Positions 8,290-56,470 of a stretch of DNA of 64,000 bases are shown here, in pieces. The notes under the pieces are model-generated. The model was not told where the DNA came from. It did not search any database and saw only the letters and a program-made list of their open reading frames with translations. The first letter of the stretch is position 1. Every line of letters starts with the position of its first letter. The translations under genes and the position numbers were made by a program. Source of the DNA: Gammaproteobacteria bacterium (GTDB taxonomy: Bacteria; Pseudomonadota; Gammaproteobacteria; Ga0077536); contig JACPPA010000021.1 in assembly GCA_016191285.1 (NCBI GenBank), forward strand, positions 14,473 through 78,472, in the 5' to 3' direction.

Positions 8290-8480
8290 AAAGCGCATAA
8301 AGGGATTCTACCGCCGTCGTCCCGGCGCAGGCCGGGACCCAGTCCACGAAGATTCTTTGACTGGATCCCGGAGTTTCGCTGCGCGAATTCCGGGATGACG
8401 GCGTGAGAGTAGCGCCGCGCTCGGTACACCCAACACAACCTCGACAACTCCATCGAGTTTTCACACAGCCTGTTACGCCG
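8290..8480. repeat. MITE-like composite repeat element (family shared with 45290-45440)
   Basis: tcccggcgcaggccgggacc hairpin plus a conserved about 110-nt module (...ccgggatgacggcgtgaga..gcgccgcgctcg...gcctgttacgccggaatgacgat). Near-identical copy at 45300-45435. Confidence 0.7.
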
Positions 8481-8613
8481 GAATGACGATGCTCCAGACC
8501 ACAGCGCCTCGCGAGGTGGTCGATATTTCCGCTTCGCTAATTAGATTCTATAACCTAAGGATCGACGAAAGCGATCCTCGTACGGCAATACCGCTCCCTT
8601 TTGAGACCGTCGA

Positions 8614-24073: not shown

Positions 24074-27000
24074 CTAAATCGCGATTTGCAGATGATGCGT
24101 ACCGCCGTCGAGCTTCACGCGAACGACACCGGTACACTGTATGGGTATTCCATCGAGCACGGCGTCCGATACACCGCGACCGCGCTGCGATGGGTTTGAC
24201 ACGGCGATCTCGTAACGCGTCGCCTTGACATTGACCGTGGCTGAAAATCCCGGCCACGCGGCAGGAAGGCAGGGCTCGACGATGAGCCACGCGCCCTCGC
24301 GGCGAATCCCGAGAATGCCTTCAACACCGGCACGATACATCCATCCCGCCGCGCCCGTGTACCACGTCCAGCCGCCGCGGCCGACATGCGGCGCCACCGA
24401 ATAAACATCCGCCGCGACGACGTAGGGCTCGACCTTGTAGCGCTCAACTTCGTCGAGCGTCCGCGCATGATTGATGGGGTTCAACAGGGCAAAAAGCGCG
24501 GCGGCTCGGTCGCCCGCGCCCAACTTCGTATACGCCAGGATGGCCCACATCGCGGCGTGGCTGTATTGTCCCCCATTTTCGCGCAGGCCCGGCGGATAGC
24601 CCTTGATATAGCCGGGATCGCACGCGGTGTTATCGAAGGGCGGCGTGAACAACAGCGCCAGACCGTCGTTGCGGCGGATCAAATGCTTGTCCACCGACGC
24701 CATCGCGGTCACGGCGCGTGCGGGATCGGCGGCGCCGGACAACACGGCCCACGACTGCGCAATGGAATCGATCTGGCATTCCTCGCTGTCTTTCGATCCC
24801 AGCCAACTGCCGTCATCGAAGGTCGCGCGGCGATACCATTCCCCGTCCCATGCCTCGTGCTCGAGCGCAGCGCAGACGGCAACCGCATGGGCGCGCCAGC
24901 GTTGGGCGCGCGTCGGGTCGCGATCGGCCGCGAGCGGTACAAACAGCCGCAGCGTTCGCACGAGTAACCACGCGAGCCACACGGACTCGCCGTGTCCGCC
25001 GGCGCCGACGCGGTTCATCCCATCGTTCCAGTCACCAGTCCCGATGAGCGGCAAACCATGTTCGCCGGTGAGCGCCAGGCATTGATCTAAGGCGCGGGCG
25101 CAGTGTTCAAAGAGCGTGGCCGACTGATCCGCGACCAGCGGTTGAAAGAACGCGTCGGGTTCGCCCGGACGCAGTAGAGGACCGTCGAGAAACGGAATTA
25201 TCTCGTCGAGAATCGCCACGTCATCCGCCGCCGCGATGTAGGTCGCGGTCGCGAAGGCGAGCCACACCCGATCGTCCGCGATGCGCGTGCGTACACCCTG
25301 CCCGGAATGCGCCAGCCACCAATGCTGCACATCGCCTTCAACGAATTGCCGGGCGGCGGCCCGCAGCAGGTGATCGCGCGTGGCTTCCGGTTGTGAAAAA
25401 GTTAACGCCATGCCGTCTTGCAACTGATCGCGAAAGCCGTAGGCGCCGCTCGCCTGATAAAAAGCCGCGCGCGCCCACAGCCGGCAGGCGAGGGTTTGAT
25501 ACAGCAGCCACCCGTTCAACAGAATGTCCAGCGCACGATCGGGCGTTTTGACTTGAACCGTGCCTAGCACAGCGGCCCAATGATCAGTCACGCCCTTCAG
25601 CACGGCATCGAGATCGAATTCGCGATAACGCCCGACGAGCGCTGCCACATCGGCCGCAGAGCCGCATTGCCCGAGAAAGAACACCACCTCGACGGATTCG
25701 CCGGCGTCGAGTTCGATCACGCGGGTTAAAGCAGCGCACGGATCAAGCCCGGCGCCAGTAGTCTTGGACAGTAACGCCTTACTGGCGAGCGCCGCAGGGC
25801 TTGCCGGTCCACCATGGCGGCCCAGAAATTCGGTGCGGTCCGCTGTCCACGCAGTATGCCGCCCGGCGAGATCGGCAAAGGCAACCCGGCCGGCGAACGC
25901 CGGATTCCAGGGGTTACGCGCGATCAGCGCACCGCAGGCATCGACCTCGGTAATAATGAACGGGCCGGTCGCGCCGTGCGCGGTGCCGAGCACCCATTCC
26001 ACATACGCCGTGACGGAGAGCCGCCGCGGCACTCCCGACAAATTGCTGAGGGTCAGGCGTGAGATCTTGATGGGATCCGCAAGCGGTACGTATTGCAACA
26101 GGTCGAGCGCGATGCCGTGCGCCCGATGTTCGAAGCGACAATAGCCGTGACCGTGGCGTGCGATGTACCTTCCACCGTCGCGGATCGGTTGCGCCGTTGC
26201 GCTCCATAAATCCAAAGTGTCTTCGTCGCGAACGTAAATCGCCTCCCCTGCCGGATCGCCAATCGGATCGTTCGACCACGGCGTCAGCTGGTTCTCGCGA
26301 CTGCTCTCCGCCCACGTATACCCACTGCCGTCGGCCGAGGCTTGAAATCCGAAATGCGGATTGGCCACCACATTGATCCAGGGCGCTGGCGTCGTCTGCG
26401 CGCCGTCGAGGACGGTGACATATTCGCGGCCGTCGCGGTCGAAGCCCCCCAGGCCGTTAAAGAATTCGAGATCCGGTGGCGTCGGCAGGGATTGCGGCGC
26501 CGGCTTTGGGCGACGCACGCTCGCCGGCCGGATCGCCGGCGGCCGCCGCGCGAGTTCGTCGGCTAACTGCTCGGCAAGTGACCCACGGCGCGCGACCAGC
26601 GCGACGCGGGCAACCGCTTGCAGCAGCGCCCGGGTGTCGAGATGCATCAAGTCGGCGCGCAACGTAAAGACCGCGCCGTGCGCGAGCTCGGCGCCGAAGC
26701 GGGGTCGCGCCTGGCTGCTGCGCACGGCGGTATCGATGGCGTTCTGTAAATCCTGCAAGTACGACGACGCGTGTTCGTTGACGATCACGAGATCCACGCT
26801 CAGGCGTTTCATGCGCCAGTATTCGTGCGCGCGCAGGAGTTGGCGCACTTGGTCGATGTCTTCGCTATCGTCGATGCGCAACAGTACGATCGGAAGATCG
26901 CCGGAAATCGCGTGCGGCCACAGCCCGGACTGCGGCCCAGCACCGCGCATGATCGTCGCCGACGGCGCCCTGAAACGAGGGTCGGCGTAGACGATCGGGG

Positions 27001-42116: not shown

Positions 42117-44453
42117 ATGATGACTGCGGAGCCCGCGCGCGACACCGAAGCCCAGGCCTTTCTCGACATGTTGCGCGAGAGTGCGACCGACTATTGTGCC
42201 CGGGCATTGCCCGTTAGCCGCTTGCGGCCGTTACGCGCCGCCGGCCTTGGCTACGACCGCGCGCGATGGCGCGAAATGGCCGACCTCGGCTGGTCATCGA
42301 TCCTCGCACCGGCCGGCGCGGGTGGCTTGGGGTTGGGCGCGGCGGCAATCGGGGCGTTGTGCGAAAACCTGGGTAGCGTAGTCGCACCGGAACCCATTCT
42401 GGAATGCGCGGGAGCTGCAGTATCGATTCTAGCCAGTCTCGACGTCGCGCCGGAGCTCTTGACCGCCATAGCGGCGGGGGAATCGATCGTCATTGTGCCG
42501 GTTAGATCGTGTTCCGAGCAGTCATTTAGTCGTATCACGGCGACGCGGGATGCGCGCGGATTTGCGCTGCAGGGCCGCGTCGCGCACGTTCCCTTGGCGC
42601 AGGAGTCGGATATTGTTCTAGTGCCCGCGCTGCTCGACGGCGAACCCGCCTTGTTCCGGGTGACGACTGCCGCCGTCGGGATGACGTGCGATCTACAAAC
42701 GCTTGCCGACGGCAGTTGCCACGGCAGGTTGAGTTTCGATCGATGCCGCGTCGAAGTATCTGCCCTGCTGGGAGTTGGCCGCGTCGTCGAAGCGGCAATG
42801 ACGCGCGCTACGGAATTGAGTCGGCTCGCAGCGGCCGCGTATCTCAACGGATTGGCCGACGCCTTACTCAAGATCACCATCGCTTACGTCAGCACGCGTC
42901 AGCAGTTCGGGCAAACCATCGCGAGCTTTCAAGTGGTGCAGCATCGGCTGGTTGATCTTTATCTTAAGACACGACTAACGACTGCCGCGGTGCGCGACTG
43001 CCTAGATGCTTTCGACGCGACCAGTGACAGCGAACAAGCACGGTGCGCCAGTCGAGCCTGTTATCGTGCGTGCGAGACGGCGCTCGCGGTGGTGCGCGAA
43101 GCCGTGCAACTTCACGGCGGTATCGGCTACACCGAGCAATGCGATGTGGTGTTGTATCTCAATCGTGCGTTGGTGCTTAGCGCGCGTTATGGCAATGCCG
43201 CACAGCATGCGGCGCGCATCGCCGGACTCGATCGAAATTCCGCGGTGAGCACGCCGCTCGCGGCAAGGCGAACGCCCATCGATCCCAATCTGATTCCCGC
43301 AGAGGGCGATTGGAATGGTCTCGCCAACGAGGATTTTCGCGCCGTAATTCGTGCGTGGTTCGAAGCGAATTACCCCGCCGCTCTGCGCCATCCGTCGCGG
43401 CGTTTGCATTGGAGCGAAGTCAAACCTTGGCATCGGCAACTGTGCGTGCGAGGGTGGGCCGCACCGGCGTGGCCGCGCGAACACGGCGGCATGGGGTTGT
43501 CGCCCGAGAAATTGCTGATTTACATCGAAGAGCGTGAGCGCTGGGGCGTGGCCCGGACCCCGGATCAAGGGATTTTGATGGTCGGCCCATTGCTGATGGA
43601 ACACGGCACCGCGGCACAACGGGCGATGTATTTATCGAAGGCGCTGAGCGGAGAGCACATCTGGTGCCAAGGCTATTCGGAGCCGAACGCCGGATCGGAT
43701 CTCGCGAGCCTGCGGACGACCGCCGATCGCGACGGTGATCATTTTGTCGTCAATGGACAAAAAACCTGGACCACCTTGGCGCAGGACGCGACCCATATGT
43801 ACTGCCTGGTACGCACTGATCGCAGCGCCAAGCCGCAAGCAGGGATCAGTTTTTTATTGATCGATCTCACGGCGCCCGGGATTACGATTCGTCCGATTCG
43901 CAATCTTGCCGGGCATGAAGAATTCTGCGAGGTGTTTTTCGATAATGTGCGCGTGCCGGCGCAAAATCTCGTCGGTATCTTGAATCAGGGTTGGACCATC
44001 GCGAAGGCTTTGCTGGGCTTCGAGCGAATTTTCATCGGCAGCCCCAAAACTTGCCAATACGCGCTGCATCGCTTGGAAGAACTCGGCGCCGCGTTGGATC
44101 TCGCCGCGGATCCGGTGTTCGTGGATAAATTCACCCGGCTCAAGCTCGATGTCCAGGATTTGGAATCCCTCTACAAAGAATTCGCCGACGTCGTGCGCCG
44201 CGGTGAACGGCTCGGCGCCGACGTATCGCTGTTAAAAATCTGGGCCAGCGAGACCTATCAACGGCTCAGCGAATGCTTGCTCGAAACCGCGGGCGAAGCG
44301 GGCGCGACCTTAGGCACGCTCGACTTCAACGGCACACGGATGGAGGTCTTAAGTCATTACTACGGCGCGCGTCCCACCACGATTTACGGCGGCGCGAACG
44401 AAGTTCAACGCAACATCCTCGCCAAGCAAATCTTGAATCTGCCGGCGCGCTAG
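42117..44453 (+). CDS. Fused double acyl-CoA dehydrogenase (two ACAD modules, 778 aa)
   Basis: Two consecutive ACAD-like halves. The second carries the canonical GYSEPNAGSDLASLRT motif and a C-terminal YGGANEVQRNILAKQIL tail. Confidence 0.75.
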   Translation: MMTAEPARDTEAQAFLDMLRESATDYCARALPVSRLRPLRAAGLGYDRARWREMADLGWSSILAPAGAGGLGLGAAAIGALCENLGSVVAPEPILECAGAAVSILASLDVAPELLTAIAAGESIVIVPVRSCSEQSFSRITATRDARGFALQGRVAHVPLAQESDIVLVPALLDGEPALFRVTTAAVGMTCDLQTLADGSCHGRLSFDRCRVEVSALLGVGRVVEAAMTRATELSRLAAAAYLNGLADALLKITIAYVSTRQQFGQTIASFQVVQHRLVDLYLKTRLTTAAVRDCLDAFDATSDSEQARCASRACYRACETALAVVREAVQLHGGIGYTEQCDVVLYLNRALVLSARYGNAAQHAARIAGLDRNSAVSTPLAARRTPIDPNLIPAEGDWNGLANEDFRAVIRAWFEANYPAALRHPSRRLHWSEVKPWHRQLCVRGWAAPAWPREHGGMGLSPEKLLIYIEERERWGVARTPDQGILMVGPLLMEHGTAAQRAMYLSKALSGEHIWCQGYSEPNAGSDLASLRTTADRDGDHFVVNGQKTWTTLAQDATHMYCLVRTDRSAKPQAGISFLLIDLTAPGITIRPIRNLAGHEEFCEVFFDNVRVPAQNLVGILNQGWTIAKALLGFERIFIGSPKTCQYALHRLEELGAALDLAADPVFVDKFTRLKLDVQDLESLYKEFADVVRRGERLGADVSLLKIWASETYQRLSECLLETAGEAGATLGTLDFNGTRMEVLSHYYGARPTTIYGGANEVQRNILAKQILNLPAR

Positions 44454-44529
44454 AACGCACAACCGCGAGCCCGTGAACAATTTGTAACGCAGAGGCTAGG
44501 CGCAGGCCAGCCGCTCTGCGATTCCAAAT

Positions 44530-44919
44530 TCAGCTTGTCATCGATGCTCGCGGATCGAAGTTATGCGGAACACGCATGAAAAGGAGTTTGGCGGGCCCAT
44601 CAAGCACACGGGTGCGATGGCCTTGGCCGCCAGTATCGTCCGCCATGAACATTTCACCGGGTCCCCATTGTCGAATCTCGCCGTCGTTCATCTCAACTTC
44701 GAGGCGACCGGTGAGTACTACGACGAATTGCCGATTCGGCGCCACATGCCAATCTTGATTCAGCCCAACCGGTAGCTCAGCGAGTATCGCGCCGGCCTCG
44801 AACGGGCGCGACAAATGATAGGTGTAACCTGCATCGGTCTTCGACTCCGGGAACGGAATATCGATCTCTTCGAAGCGCGAGACGTGATTGTCCGTTTCGT
44901 AAAATCGAATGATCTTCAT
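44530..44919 (-). CDS. Cupin-domain protein (129 aa)
   Basis: MKIIRFYETDNHVSRFEEIDIPF...WHVAPNRQFVVVLTGRLEVEMNDGEIRQWGPGEMFMADD. GAGGA RBS. Confidence 0.6.
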   Translation of the reverse strand: MKIIRFYETDNHVSRFEEIDIPFPESKTDAGYTYHLSRPFEAGAILAELPVGLNQDWHVAPNRQFVVVLTGRLEVEMNDGEIRQWGPGEMFMADDTGGQGHRTRVLDGPAKLLFMRVPHNFDPRASMTS

Positions 44920-45089
44920 AGCGGTTTTCCTCTTTGAACGAATAGCAGCGATTGCTTTGTAATCTAAATGGACGAGCATCGATACCGGCCAGGTTAATAT
45001 GATGCGATAGGCGATGTAGATTGCGCTATCGCCGTCCCGGCGAAATAAAGACCACTTCATGGATTCCGGCTTACGAGGCCGTATAAAAA

Positions 45090-45450
45090 CTCGATAGGCG
45101 TTGTCGTCGTGGCGTCCGACCCTGCACCCGTCATGCCGGCGCACGCCGGAATCCAAAGAGCCTCAGAGCACCTACCACCGTCATGCCGGCGAACGCCGGA
45201 ATCCAAAGGGCCTCAGAGCACTCCCACCGTCATTCCGGCGAATGCCGGAATCCAGTGAAGAAATACTGTCCGCGCAATGCGCGGACACCTAATCCGACTG
45301 GATCCCGGATAACCGCTCCGCGAATGCCGGGATGACGGCGTGAGAACCGCGCCGCGCTCGCTACCCCCAACACCAGCGCGACAACGCCATCGAGTGTTTA
45401 CCCGGCCTGTTACGCCGGAATGACGATAAGTAAACTCTGGCGCACTTCGG
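45090..45450. repeat. MITE-like composite repeat cluster: three tandem 48-nt VIPAKAGI-type units plus a 110-nt module shared with 8290-8480
   Basis: ccaccgtcat[g/t]ccggcgaa[c/t]gccggaatccaaag.gcctcagagcac repeated three times (45117-45250), then an about 140-nt segment near-identical to 8340-8470. Confidence 0.75.
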
Positions 45451-45494
45451 GCGGTCGGTATTTCCAGTTCGTTATCTAGTCAACATCCTGATAA

Positions 45495-46114
45495 CTATGC
45501 ATAGCCTGTAGGCGGGTCAAGATACCTTTCAATTCCATCCCAGGCCTTATCTTTGATCATCACAAAACGGCAGCGTCCATTGGATACTCCAGCCCACAGC
45601 CCGCCTATCAGGCGATCGTCTTCAGCATCGGTCCAGTGCTGCGCGCCCTTGTTTTCGACCGCAAGGATGCTGCCGCCCGGCAACTGGCAAAGGAAGTCGG
45701 GATAGAAACGTCCATCCGCTTCGGGAATGCCATGCCCGCCCTGCCGGACGCGCTGCGCCACGCGGGCAAGGCTTCTTCAGGGCTGGCGAGTTGGAGAAAG
45801 ATCAGTTTGACCCAGTATCCCGCGGCCTGCCATTGCTCGATCAAGCGCGAATAGTCGCGACCAGACAAGGTGCTTTCAAACGCGAAACTGACGCGCGCCG
45901 CGAAGTGCCGCGCCATTTCTTCCAACATGATTCGCCCGGCTTGCCTGGCAACGGTTTCTGGCGCAAACGGCGCCAGACCCGCGGCGATCAAGTCGGTATT
46001 GACGAACACTGGGCAATTGGCGTCGGTGGGTAGGAACTCGCGGGCAAAGGTCGTTTTGCCCGCGCCGTTGGGACCGGCAATGAGGATAACGCGCGGTGTG
46101 GCCGCCATTGTCAC
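45495..46114 (-). pseudogene. Zeta-toxin-like P-loop ATPase/kinase, frameshifted near nt 45768-45775
   Basis: Walker A GPNGAGKTT, then ...FAFESTLSG...LASPEEAL in one frame. The conserved continuation ARVAQRVRQGGHGIPEAD is in the -1 frame. The called frame ends in a low-complexity tail. Confidence 0.65.
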
Positions 46115-47462
46115 AGCTCCAGCGCGTAAGGGGTTTGCTTGAACACGATACCTTCACGCGAGAGGCGCACGCCCATGCGGCAGGCCGCCGCATAGATCAC
46201 CTTCGGACCGGCGAATTTCGGTAGCACGTCATACACCAGTCCGGTCAGCACGTTGCCGCCCGCCACCGATTTATCCTTGAGGATACCGTTATAGAGCAGA
46301 TAGATCGTCCGACCTTCGTGGGTGCCTAGCAGCGGCGAATCGCTTGTGCCGGTGTAGCCGCTGCCGGTTTCCGCGAACCACACAAATTCGGCGAGCTGGG
46401 CGAAGGTGACATTGGCGCGGATCTGGCCTTCGGCGGTGAAGAGTGGCTCAGCCGAGAGGCGGCAGAACTGGAAGCCGCCGCCGAGGCCGGCTACGACTTG
46501 TTCTTTCGTGTTGATGTAGCCCATGGTGACGCGCTTCACGCGTTCGGTAGTCACGTTGCGAGCAATATAGAACCACATTGTTTGCGGAACGATGCCGTCC
46601 TTCACGTCGGAGAGATAGCGCTTCAATCTCGGCATGTTATTGCCGTCCTCACCCCACCAGATGCGTCCATCCTTGTCGAGCTCTTAAAACTTCGCTTTTG
46701 ATACTCGCCAATACATGCCTTTCCCTGGGCCTGAGATCACTCGGCCCGAAGGACACGAAACCGAATACATTCCTTCCGAGTAGTAATTGCGAGCTTGTAG
46801 GTCCCCGGATGCTCAAGGCCCGCGTGGATCGCCACTTACATTCTTGTAGCGTGCGGTGGCTTCGTCCCCGCGAGGTAAAAGGCTGGGTTTCCATGTCTGG
46901 GCGTCGGTAGCATAAATCACGATGTAATCGTGATCTTCTGACAGATGCCGAGCTGAGTTTTTTGGCGAAAAAATCTTTTGCCACAATACCGTGGCTATAA
47001 ATTTCTCGTGCCAAAAATTTCATCCATTAACAGCCGCAGAGTCGCCACCTCGTTATCGTCAATCGAAATAAAAATCGTCCCGTCGTCGCGCAAGAACTGC
47101 TTTAGCAATAGGAGGCGTGGATACATCATGCACAGCCAGCGATCATGCCGGTCCAACGTCTCGCCTTCCTTGCCCACCACCTCGCCCAGCCATTTGCGAA
47201 TCTCCGGGCTGTTGACGTTATCGTTGTAAGCCCAACCTTCGTTGCCGGTGTTATAGGGCGGGTCGATGTAGATGCACTTCACCTGCCCGGCATAGCGCGG
47301 CAGGAGGGCTTTGAGGGCGTGCAGGTTGTCACCTTGTACGATCAGATTGCCGCTATCGGCATCGCCGCAGGACAATTCAGGCACCGGCTCCAGCAAGCGG
47401 AACGGGACCTCCTTGTGATGTTTGACGACGGCTTCTCTTCCGATCCAATTGAGTGTGGGCAT
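46111..47462 (-). pseudogene. N6/N4 DNA methyltransferase (Type III Mod-like, PF01555-type), disrupted by multiple frameshifts/stops
   Basis: N-terminal fragment with IYIDPPYNTGN (motif IV) and FISIDDNE. Middle segment readable only across frames (HDYIVIYATDAQTWKP ... YKNVSGDPRGPWASGDL ... DKDGRIWWGEDG). C-terminal fragment (PRLKRYL...TIYLLYNGIL...GNVLTG...IVFKQTPY). Confidence 0.7.
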
Positions 47463-47799
47463 GAGCTATAACAAGTTTGTTCAGAAATTCCGCTGCTGAT
47501 GAGTAGATGGCGTCGCGGGCGATAAATGCCGCGACCCAGACCGATGCATCAATAACCATCAGCCACGCCGTTGTTCACGCACGGCATTGACCGCATCCAG
47601 CTTGGTTTTCCAGCTTTTACTGACTTCTCCAGGGCGGCAACCGCCTTGACCTTGCGGAACAGATCGTCCGGCATTTCGATGGTGGTTTTCACGCGCACTC
47701 CCATAAATATGGAAACCCATGAACCCTACCAGTCGTCGCGTGGTCAGTTCAAGGTCTGGTCCGATGCCCGGTGCTTGCGATCGAAATTCAAGGCTAACG

Positions 47800-47960
47800 C
47801 GGTTCAACTAAATAACGGAGCGTAAATACCGTCCACCCTACGCAGGTTGGGCTTTAACCGCGTCATGCCGGCGTGATCCCGGCTTTCGCCGGAAGGAATC
47901 CAGGACAATTAGCTATTCGACTGGGTCCCGGCATTCGCCGGGACGACAGTAGTGCATTCC
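47800..47960. repeat. MITE-like repeat element (family shared with 56100-56230)
   Basis: ataccgtccaccctacgcaggttgggctttaaccgcgtcatgccggcgtgatcccggc...aggaatccaggaca...ttcgactgggtcccggc. Near-identical to 56105-56225. Confidence 0.7.
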
Positions 47961-48011
47961 GATGATCCGACGCACACCGTCGCGACCTGGTCGCTATTTA
48001 TGCTCTTCTAT

Positions 48012-49715
48012 TTAGGGCTCGTAAGCCGCCGTGCGTAACACCCGCCCCGGCAACTTGCCCGTGCATTGATCGTATTCAAAGGTCGGTACGCCGTTGACGA
48101 TGATCGCGCGATAGCCCTTGGCTTTTTGGATTAACCGTTTGCCGCCCGCGATGATGTCTTCGTACACCGGCTCCTTGGGCGTGACTTCGAGTTTCTCCAA
48201 ATCGTAGACCACGATATCCGCCGGCATGCCGACTTGCAGCGTGCCGATCCCGTCGAGCCCGATGGCCGCCGCCGACATATAGGACAGGCGCCAATGCGCT
48301 TCTTCGAGCGTGAGCACCCCTTCGTCGCGTACCCACTTGGTGAGCATCACGGTCGGATATTTACCAAGACACAGGAATTGCGTGTGGGCGCCGCCATCCG
48401 ACAAGCCGGGGATGACGAAGGGATGGCTCATGATCTCGCCCACCGCGGCGTCTTCCGAGTTATTCAGGTCTTCAATCAGGAACAGCGTTCGCAGTTCCTC
48501 GCCGAGTGCGATCTCGCAGAACGCATCGAGCGGCGGAATGCCTATCGCGCGCGCGATTTCACCCACGTACCGACCTTTAAACTTCGCTTGCTCGGAATCG
48601 AACACCTTCATCCGCTCCCAATTACCGGCCCACAAACGGTTCTTGTAATGGTCTAAATCATGTTGCAAGCGAGCCCGTACTTCGGCGTTGCGAAGATTCG
48701 CGAGCCGCTCTTCCATCGGGCAGGCCAGCGCCTTGTTCCACTGCGGCATGTCATCGAACAGGTTGTATTCCACCAAATTGAATAGCGATTCGATTTGATG
48801 CGCGTTGCCGAGCGCAAAAATTCGATGCCGCGTGTTCATGTCTTCCAGACGGCCCAACGCTTCTTTCCATTGGCCGGGTAAGTGATGGACCTGCAGGATG
48901 GCGTTGTAATACACGGGCCGGCCACTCAGTTCCGCCCAGCGTTCCAGCATGGTCGCTTCTTCCGGCCCGAGGTGCAGAGATTGTGGCGTGACTTCGATGG
49001 AGCCGACATTGAACTCGCGGGCGACGCCGATGAGCGCTTCGGTCTCTTCGATATTCGCGATCAAGCTGGGCAGCAGCGAGCCGTCATAATCGCGATCGAT
49101 CAGATTGAAATCCGTGGACAGCCCCAAGGCGCCGGCACGATACCCCTCGCGCACGAGTTCTTTCATCTGCTCCAATTCGTCTAAGGTAATTTTCTCGCGC
49201 CGCGAATCGTCTTCGCCGAGCACCCACGCGCGGATCGGCGATTGCGGGATATAGGTCGCGACGTTGACGCCAATGCCAGCGCGTTCGAGCGACGCCAGAT
49301 AATCGCGCTGACTCACCCAATCCCAGCGCATGCCTTCTTTCATCGACGCGTACGGAATGGCCTCGACGCGGGTCATGCGGCGCATCGCGCGTTCCCGGTC
49401 TTCTGGCCGGCAGGGCGCGAACCCGAAGCCGCAGGCGCTGACCACGATACTGGTGATGCCATGCCAGCACGACTGCGAGGCGTACGGATCCCAGTTCAAT
49501 TGCGCATCGTAATGCGTGTGCACATCGATAAAACCAGGCGCCACCACCAGGCCGCGGGCATCGATCTCCTGACGTCCCTTGCCGCGCACAGTGCCGATTT
49601 CGGCGATGCGTCCGTCCTTGACGGCGACATCGCCGTTAAACGCTGGCATCCGCGTGCCATCGACCACCCGGCCACCTCGGATGACTAGATCGTATTCCAC
49701 AGTTGAATTGGGCAT
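48012..49715 (-). CDS. N-acyl-D-amino-acid deacylase (D-aminoacylase) family amidohydrolase
   Basis: N-terminal block DLVIRGGRVVDGTRMPAFNGDVAVKDGRIAEIG...GLVVAPGFIDVHTHYD. About 567 aa. Confidence 0.75.
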   Translation of the reverse strand: MPNSTVEYDLVIRGGRVVDGTRMPAFNGDVAVKDGRIAEIGTVRGKGRQEIDARGLVVAPGFIDVHTHYDAQLNWDPYASQSCWHGITSIVVSACGFGFAPCRPEDRERAMRRMTRVEAIPYASMKEGMRWDWVSQRDYLASLERAGIGVNVATYIPQSPIRAWVLGEDDSRREKITLDELEQMKELVREGYRAGALGLSTDFNLIDRDYDGSLLPSLIANIEETEALIGVAREFNVGSIEVTPQSLHLGPEEATMLERWAELSGRPVYYNAILQVHHLPGQWKEALGRLEDMNTRHRIFALGNAHQIESLFNLVEYNLFDDMPQWNKALACPMEERLANLRNAEVRARLQHDLDHYKNRLWAGNWERMKVFDSEQAKFKGRYVGEIARAIGIPPLDAFCEIALGEELRTLFLIEDLNNSEDAAVGEIMSHPFVIPGLSDGGAHTQFLCLGKYPTVMLTKWVRDEGVLTLEEAHWRLSYMSAAAIGLDGIGTLQVGMPADIVVYDLEKLEVTPKEPVYEDIIAGGKRLIQKAKGYRAIIVNGVPTFEYDQCTGKLPGRVLRTAAYEP

Positions 49716-56094: not shown

Positions 56095-56470
56095 CGTGCG
56101 AACTAAATAGCGAAGCGGAAATACCGTCCACCCTGCGGAGGTTGGGCTTTAACTGCGTCATTCCGGCGTGGTCCCGGCCTGCGCCGGGAGGAATCCAGGA
56201 CATTGAGTTATTCGACTGGGTCCCGGCGTTCCAGGCCGTGTAAAAACTCCAAGTGAATTGGAGCAGCAGGGAACAAGAACCCAGTACACGTCATTCCGGC
56301 GAACGCCGGAATCCAGAAAAAAAGCAGATCCGCGCGCTGCGCAGAGGCCTACTCTGACTGGAAAGCCGGAGTTTCGCTTTGCGAATTCCGGGGTGACGGA
56401 CGGCGGTTCGAGTTTTTACACGCCCTCGTTCGCCGGCACGGACACCGCGCGTAAACCACGACGAAGGTCT
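56095..56470. repeat. MITE-like composite repeat cluster
   Basis: Copy of the 47800-47960 module (56105-56225), plus a VIPAKAGI-type unit (cgtcattccggcgaacgccggaatccag, 56290-56318) and a degenerate third module. Confidence 0.7.

Follow-up and report, generated by a model that had tools for sequence, protein, structure and literature searches.

The minus strand of positions 47462-45495 in the window, which is the whole 64,000-nt stretch of contig JACPPA010000021.1 analyzed here and comes from a gammaproteobacterial metagenome-assembled genome (MAG), holds the remains of three adjoining genes: a pseudogene of Mod, the β-class N6-adenine methyltransferase of a Type III restriction-modification (R-M) system (46111-47462), a pseudogene of a zeta-toxin-like P-loop kinase (45720-46108), and the C-terminal ~74 codons, with the stop, of a Type III Res (45495-45719). 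Remnants of a probable antitoxin/PIN-toxin pair lie upstream of Mod, and a block of repeats stands outside each end. A sequence-only reading had presented the region as a decayed two-gene locus, consisting of a methyltransferase and a zeta-toxin-like ATPase and lacking a restriction partner. The motifs that it quoted for both proteins are all present on the minus strand, with Pfam matches far beyond chance (E = 7e-13 for N6_N4_Mtase, PF01555, on the raw 155-aa open reading frame [ORF]; E = 1.3e-8 for Zeta_toxin, PF06414, on the window ORF, at 34.9 bits against a curated cut-off of 22.3). The locus is instead the remnant of a mod-zeta-small-res array, in which a stub of Res is fused to the ATPase.

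Six-frame translation, motif mapping, Pfam and homologue alignment placed the start of Mod at the ATG at 47462 and its native stop at TGA 46113-46111. The motifs occupy two frames, not the three proposed earlier: codons 1-151 run in the first (DPPY, 47264-47253; FISIDDNE, 47072-47049), and the second carries HDYIVIYA (46932-46909), DPRGP immediately before a stop (46830-46813), DGRIWW (46671-46654), GNVLTG (46257-46240) and FKQTPYALEL with the native stop (46143-46111). Lesions were counted by homologue alignment and by tblastn against an intact reference locus, L011. A 1-nt loss at 47009/47008 leads to TAG at 46997-46995 and shifts the later codons into the second frame; a TGG-to-TGA change at Trp217 (46815-46813) and a TAA nonsense codon (46686-46684) follow, and an in-frame deletion of 84 codons (252 bp; junction between 46567 and 46566), which had been overlooked, has removed the TPKP block and the S-adenosylmethionine (SAM)-binding motif I (FxGxG; DSFAGSGTT). 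This segment, from TPKP to DSFAGSGTT, is kept in all aligned homologues and in L006, a syntenic contig of a sister lineage. The deletion by itself rules out Mod activity; the catalytic motif IV (DPPY/F) is present, whereas the SAM-binding motif is absent and the reading frame is interrupted. The repaired protein (450 aa) matched homologues of 534-561 aa at 82-89% identity, with E values down to 1e-262, and these homologues number thousands, in Nitrosomonas, Nitrosospira, Tepidimonas and others. The closest intact homologue, L011 Mod, is 84% identical to the repaired protein, matches PADLOC MTase_III (PDLC03644) end to end (positions 1-533 of 542; E = 7e-218), and matches the solved structures of Type III Mod proteins (6k0w, E = 1.8e-59; EcoP15I Mod 4zcf, E = 1.6e-49).

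The kinase pseudogene, delimited by Pfam, homologues and tblastn to L011, starts at ATG 46108 and carries its Walker A motif, GPNGAGKTT, at 46075-46049. Codons 1-113 are in frame; a 1-nt deletion at ~45769 follows, which confirms the frame change placed earlier at about 45770, and codons 114-130 then read ARVAQRVRQGGHGIPE, so that the GGHGIPE motif is reached only after the change of frame. The coding sequence is incomplete in the window, being cut after codon 130 of ~173. Zeta_toxin matches the intact L011 homologue at 43.6 bits. The family is very large, its members are typically 174 aa long and up to 92% identical to the window kinase, and they are variously named "zeta toxin family protein", "AAA family ATPase" and "predicted ABC-type ATPase".

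Beyond GGHGIPE, the frame runs on as ADGRFYPDFLCQLPGGSILAVENKG...DPPTGYA to a stop, and this tail aligns with the extreme C-terminus of Res (coding sequence, 45719-45498; stop codon, 45497-45495). The stub matched residues 813-900 of the 901-aa Res of L003 in one high-scoring segment pair by blastp (E = 1e-33) and the Res of L011 by tblastn (E = 6e-31), in both cases a Res encoded beside a close Mod homologue and 63-64% identical, and its sequence ADGRFYPDF...VENKG constitutes a PD-(D/E)xK-type nuclease motif. The restriction partner reported as missing is therefore present in part. Its N-terminal superfamily 2 helicase (ResIII/DEAD) domain is absent from the window, where only residues ~828-901 find a match. 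A deletion of ~2.8 kb joins kinase codon 130, in the shifted frame, in frame to the stub, at the cost of zeta codons 131-173, the small gene and the first 827 codons of Res; the kinase was already frameshifted when this deletion fused it to Res. The intact Res of L011 matched PADLOC REase_III at E = 1e-123, and a sequence search of the PDB with Res gave no match. An orphan methyltransferase was considered as an identity for the locus and rejected, since the Res stub is present.

The arrangement from which these parts derive is seen in intact relatives. The operon of L011 comprises mod (534 aa), zeta (173 aa), a small gene (73 aa) and res (901 aa), with overlapping starts and stops, and the order [HTH_17]-mod-zeta-like ATPase (173-174 aa)-small-res is shared by L011, L001 and L002, the latter two from a Nitrosomonas MAG. 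The original order in the window would likewise have been mod, zeta-toxin-like kinase, a small partner gene of ~73 aa, and res. The remnant measures 1968 bp against 5049 bp for the intact L011 operon, leaving ~40% of the length. Compared with the Type III systems EcoP15I and EcoP1I, the Mod remnant shares the β-class motif order, with DPPY ahead of the target-recognition region, and the intact relatives share mod upstream of res, matches to MTase_III, REase_III and EcoP15I Mod, and a Res with an N-terminal ResIII helicase and a C-terminal PD-(D/E)xK-like motif. They differ in that the Mod of the intact relatives is shorter than that of EcoP15I (534 versus 644 aa) and that in many of them a further cassette of two genes separates mod from res, whereas the window copy retains neither motif I nor any of the Res helicase region and is missing most of the operon. 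We consider it very probable that 47462-45495 is the dead remnant of a horizontally acquired, four-gene phage-defense operon of the Type III R-M class, which small mutations and illegitimate deletions would have disabled in the host MAG. In its present form, the remnant can no longer methylate, restrict or act as a toxin.

Syntenic contigs of a sister lineage, assembled from other samples (L006, 98.9 kb; L008; L090-L092), carry the same site in a different state of decay. The window and the sister share the neighbor order amidohydrolase, island, cupin, acyl-CoA dehydrogenase, with nucleotide identities of 95% on the amidohydrolase side and 91-96% within the remnants. The sister keeps Mod codons ~293-401, including TPKP and DSFAGAGT, and lacks codons 1-292 and ~402-451; the remainder of the kinase is there, bearing frameshifts of its own, and so are an unbroken 75-aa small ORF and the initial ~20 codons of Res, the latter fused to a Res C-terminus that starts later (CQLPG...) than that of the window (ADGRFYPDF...). 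In the segments retained by both lineages, the number of frameshifts, stops and deletion junctions in common is zero. As with the identity of the parts and their lesions, the synteny and the lineage-specific nature of the lesions are established. Since the deletions of the sister differ from those of the window and do not overlap them, the common ancestor would have had a largely complete operon that probably still functioned.

The substitution pattern of the shared remnants, pooled and analyzed by the Nei-Gojobori method, gave a synonymous divergence (dS) of 0.148, a nonsynonymous divergence (dN) of 0.034, and a ratio (ω) of 0.23. This ratio is below 1 (binomial p = 9e-6), which indicates purifying selection over a large part of the period after the lineages separated, and it is higher than that of the flanking amidohydrolase (ω = 0.07; dS = 0.138; Fisher p = 0.01). 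The simplest reading is that the common ancestor held a substantially complete operon under selection and that each lineage lost it independently and fairly recently. The ancestral system would then have been functional, and its loss either neutral or selected.

Several points weigh against this reading. The ω estimate is based on 45 substitutions only. The analysis found no lineage in which the operon is intact at this position of the chromosome, and relatives of the amidohydrolase in Joint Genome Institute (JGI) metagenomes (83-89% amino acid identity) showed neither synteny nor an island; given that these outgroup loci lack both, the events are not polarized, and the reconstruction of the ancestral state relies on just two decayed copies. 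A shared early lesion, whether a missense change, a promoter mutation or a lesion in a segment that only one lineage retains, also has a modest chance of existing. Taken further, such a lesion would mean that the operon had lost its function before the two lineages split and that an old pseudogene has been trimmed differently in each lineage. Both lineages do hold only remnants, with no intact copy at the site; the first lesion could sit in a segment left in one lineage, such as the window stops within Mod codons 152-299, which are deleted in L006; and the remnants exceed the flanking gene in ω by a factor of 3-4. Against an ancestral death stand the lack of any lesion in common within the segments that both lineages retain and the pooled ω of 0.23, significantly below the value of ~1 expected under neutral drift since the split. 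On balance, we regard it as unlikely, although it is the strongest of the alternatives, and we favor independent loss from a selected ancestral operon.

Two further observations concern the comparison with L006. Divergence varies widely along the alignment: the amidohydrolase and the remnants have a dS of 0.14, the acyl-CoA dehydrogenase one of 0.62 and the cupin gene one of 0.80. The change in level occurs within ~50 bp of the Res stop (window 42117-44919 versus 48015-49715, each compared with L006), and because of this position it suggests a recombination breakpoint at the island edge. A segment kept only in the sister (L006 11947-12100; Mod codons ~293-330) shows 46% overall identity to the family consensus, compared with 75-85% elsewhere, which may reflect allelic variation beside the target-recognition region or neutral drift.

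The repeats at the two ends of the locus had been described as MITEs (miniature inverted-repeat transposable elements) that fit insertion-driven decay. That they are real repeats was upheld, and comparison with L006, which lacks both and has clean junctions in their place, set their extents at 47811-48012 and 44966-45474. The first, of ~200 bp, is a MITE-like insertion directly after the amidohydrolase stop codon, with a TA duplication around the insert relative to the empty site CCCTAG/TTGAACC in L006, imperfect terminal inverted repeats (only ~8 of 11 terminal bases match), and a paralogous copy at 56114-56227 (89% identical). Its target was the TA of the amidohydrolase stop itself (48010-48015), where TAG in L006 has become TAA, and a stop is kept. 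The second is a composite block of ~505 bp between the Res stub and the cupin gene, flanked on both sides by TAGAT, of which L006 has a single copy. It holds three tandem units of ~50 nt (45121-45269) that resemble repetitive extragenic palindromic (REP)-type palindromes, with the palindromic core GTCATKCCGGCG-N3-GCCGGAATCCA, and shows no clear terminal inverted repeat; a partial copy lies at 8359-8490 (132 bp, 86% identical), and the core recurs at 620, 25889 and 56290. Related copies or fragments occur in the window at 619-645, 8316-8490, 25889-25909 and 56114-56316. Both blocks are genuine dispersed MITE/REP-like elements, being short, non-coding and multi-copy. The dispersed copies share the core and the end sequence TAAATA-CG-AGCG, a pattern with five matches in the window against none expected by shuffling. 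The array also bears on the cupin gene, for which the 208-aa mechanically called ORF (44530-45156, minus strand) is an artifact running upstream into the REP-like units; the real start is ATG 44919 (MKIIRFYETDNH, 129 aa), as in L006.

That insertion of these elements caused the decay, by disrupting genes and promoting deletions, could seem plausible from their presence at both ends of the remnant and from the TA target-site duplication of one of them, which is typical of a transposed element. None of the lesion junctions contains repeat-element sequence, however; both blocks are situated beyond the start of Mod and the stop of Res, the antitoxin/PIN remnants intervene between the right-hand element and Mod, and the sister, which lacks both blocks, is decayed to an equal or greater degree. 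With no element at the junctions and decay in the sister without the blocks, insertion-driven decay is unsupported, and we consider it very unlikely. The flanking elements are bystanders that arrived later in this lineage or were lost in the sister. For the 505-bp block, either an insertion here or a deletion in L006 may account for the difference, as the 5-bp flanking repeat could mediate a deletion; this ambiguity is a further caution for the account given above. In place of insertion, the decay is ordinary pseudogene decay by point mutations and two deletions.

The lesions had also been attributed, as one of two options, to sequencing errors, the other being an eroding defense island. The latter is borne out by the reality of the lesions and by the lesions of the sister. 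The possibility that the genes are intact in the organism and that the lesions are sequencing or assembly errors draws on the MAG origin of the window and on the two lesions that are single-nucleotide indels, a class that such errors can produce. Exact protein matches tie the window to the NCBI records MBI2800714, MBI2800716 and MBI2800717 of a gammaproteobacterial MAG. A separately assembled Logan contig (L004; run SRR12113392), however, reproduces window positions 45397-47853 over 2457 bp at 100% identity, without a mismatch or gap, and ends exactly at the flanking repeats. The Logan assembly may share reads with the MAG; it rules out assembly artifacts but not systematic read errors at the two 1-nt indels, which is to be held against the account to that extent. 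Two of the Mod lesions are base substitutions that create stops, and the locus has two deletions, of 252 bp and ~2.8 kb, whose junctions are clean, either in frame or fused; neither substitutions nor kilobase deletions can be put down to read errors. The frameshift sites do not lie in homopolymers, the locus contains no simple-sequence repeats, and related genomes in other samples are decayed at the same site. Sequencing error is accordingly a highly improbable explanation, and sequencing error is not the cause of the decay. Phase variation driven by repeat tracts is frequent among Type III mod genes, and one Mod lesion is indeed a frameshift, but a phase-variable gene (phasevarion) that could be switched back on has next to no probability here, as neither the gene nor the frameshift site has a simple-sequence repeat or long homopolymer and slippage cannot revert two in-frame stops and the loss of motif I. 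A programmed frameshift was likewise rejected, given the absence of repeats, the in-frame stops and the lost motif I.

Upstream of the Mod start, ORF analysis and comparison with L006 identified the remnants of the probable antitoxin/PIN-toxin pair (47463-47704, minus strand). A 51-aa VapB/ParD-like (ribbon-helix-helix) ORF at 47704-47549 has an internal deletion relative to L006, whose longer counterpart has a weak Pfam ParD match (E = 4.7e-5) below the curated cut-off. Next comes a PIN-like N-terminal stretch (MVIDASVW..., from 47559) that breaks off after ~32 codons where Mod starts; tblastn against plasmids gave no match for it. The remnants look like a truncated VapBC-type pair, in which the PIN part is putative and assigned by motif resemblance. 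An Rfam scan of 44400-48200 at E ≤ 1 matched no RNA family.

The nature of the kinase and of its small partner was examined in the intact loci. An AlphaFold (AF2) model of an intact 174-aa homologue, P0153 (pLDDT, 83.7), found PezT (2p5t), zeta (3q8x/1gvn) and AvrRxo1 as its top matches in the PDB with Foldseek (TMq, 0.72-0.81), with polynucleotide kinases scoring almost as well; a PDB sequence search with the kinase returned marginal P-loop matches only. With the epsilon-zeta and PezAT systems and with AvrRxo1-ORF1/ORF2, the locus shares a P-loop kinase, a Walker A motif and a small adjacent gene, and related operons have genuine type II toxin-antitoxin cassettes at this position. It departs from zeta/PezT in that the intact kinase is ~174 aa rather than 250-290 aa and only ~16% identical, and in that the small partner lies downstream and belongs to no known antitoxin family; in the window, the partner gene is deleted. 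No epsilon/PezA-type antitoxin is found directly upstream of the kinase in the intact loci, where the upstream gene is mod, and the sole small partner gene is the one downstream (73-75 aa). The small protein had no match in Pfam, NCBIfam or PADLOC, and none by tblastn against plasmids. In L095 (5001-5701), the kinase and a 59-aa ORF stand alone, with no R-M genes nearby. Judged by genomic context, the kinase and the small gene most likely form a toxin-antitoxin-like cassette carried in the operon. Four contigs of the sister lineage (L006 13042-13269; L090 1040-1267; L091; L092) all have an unbroken 75-aa partner ORF, and the adjacent kinase has one or two frameshifts, the pattern expected if the small gene were an antitoxin outliving its toxin. 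L094 (3303-8464; ENA ERZ25039524 contig_3845) is another decaying Type III locus, in which Mod is called as 219 + 334 aa and Res as 332 + 587 aa, and the kinase and small ORFs lying between the two are intact.

A scan of GTDB genomes, which did not return the source genome itself, placed the zeta and small genes between mod and res in 9 of ~66 loci with both mod and res. Other cargo occupied the same position in about 20 of these ~66 loci, including PIN, ParE, PemK/MazF and DUF4160 + DUF2442, as well as Unstab_antitox, RhuM, ORF6N and Bro-N; examples, all among loci L010-L089, are the junctions L028 9602-10365, L041 9602-10260, L067 9434-10337, L021 1995-2562, L034 2817-3881 and L037 9614-10228. 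In this widespread Mod/Res family, the junction of mod and res acts as a slot for cargo, in which toxin-antitoxin-like cassettes take one another's place. Toxin genes embedded in R-M operons are known, such as PrrC (in EcoprrI), HEPN, RhuM and Fic (PMC3710099, PMC12707154), and the guardian genes among them are, as here, accessory toxin-like genes inside an R-M operon. The known guardians are mostly in Type I loci and are HEPN/ABC-ATPase nucleases, whereas the coupling of a kinase to a Type III system in these loci is putative. A literature search for zeta toxins or zeta-like genes inside Type III R-M loci found nothing relevant. By analogy with PrrC in Type I systems, the kinase and its ~73-aa partner might constitute a guardian or addiction cassette coupled to Type III R-M, a suggestion that we offer tentatively and consider doubtful.

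Decayed R-M systems are common, and the remnant is of little importance in itself, having no remaining function. The two apparent genes are better treated in annotation as fragmentary pseudogenes of a single Type III operon, of which the Res stub is easily overlooked, and the locus provides a worked example of the independent deletional decay of one defense island in two sister lineages. If the kinase cassette were a guardian, the window would record the joint death of a defense system and its embedded toxin module, and in the sister lineage the presumed antitoxin ORF would have outlived the toxin. Although toxins embedded in R-M operons are already a known principle, the interchangeable cassettes at the mod-res junction of this family are more interesting than the remnant.

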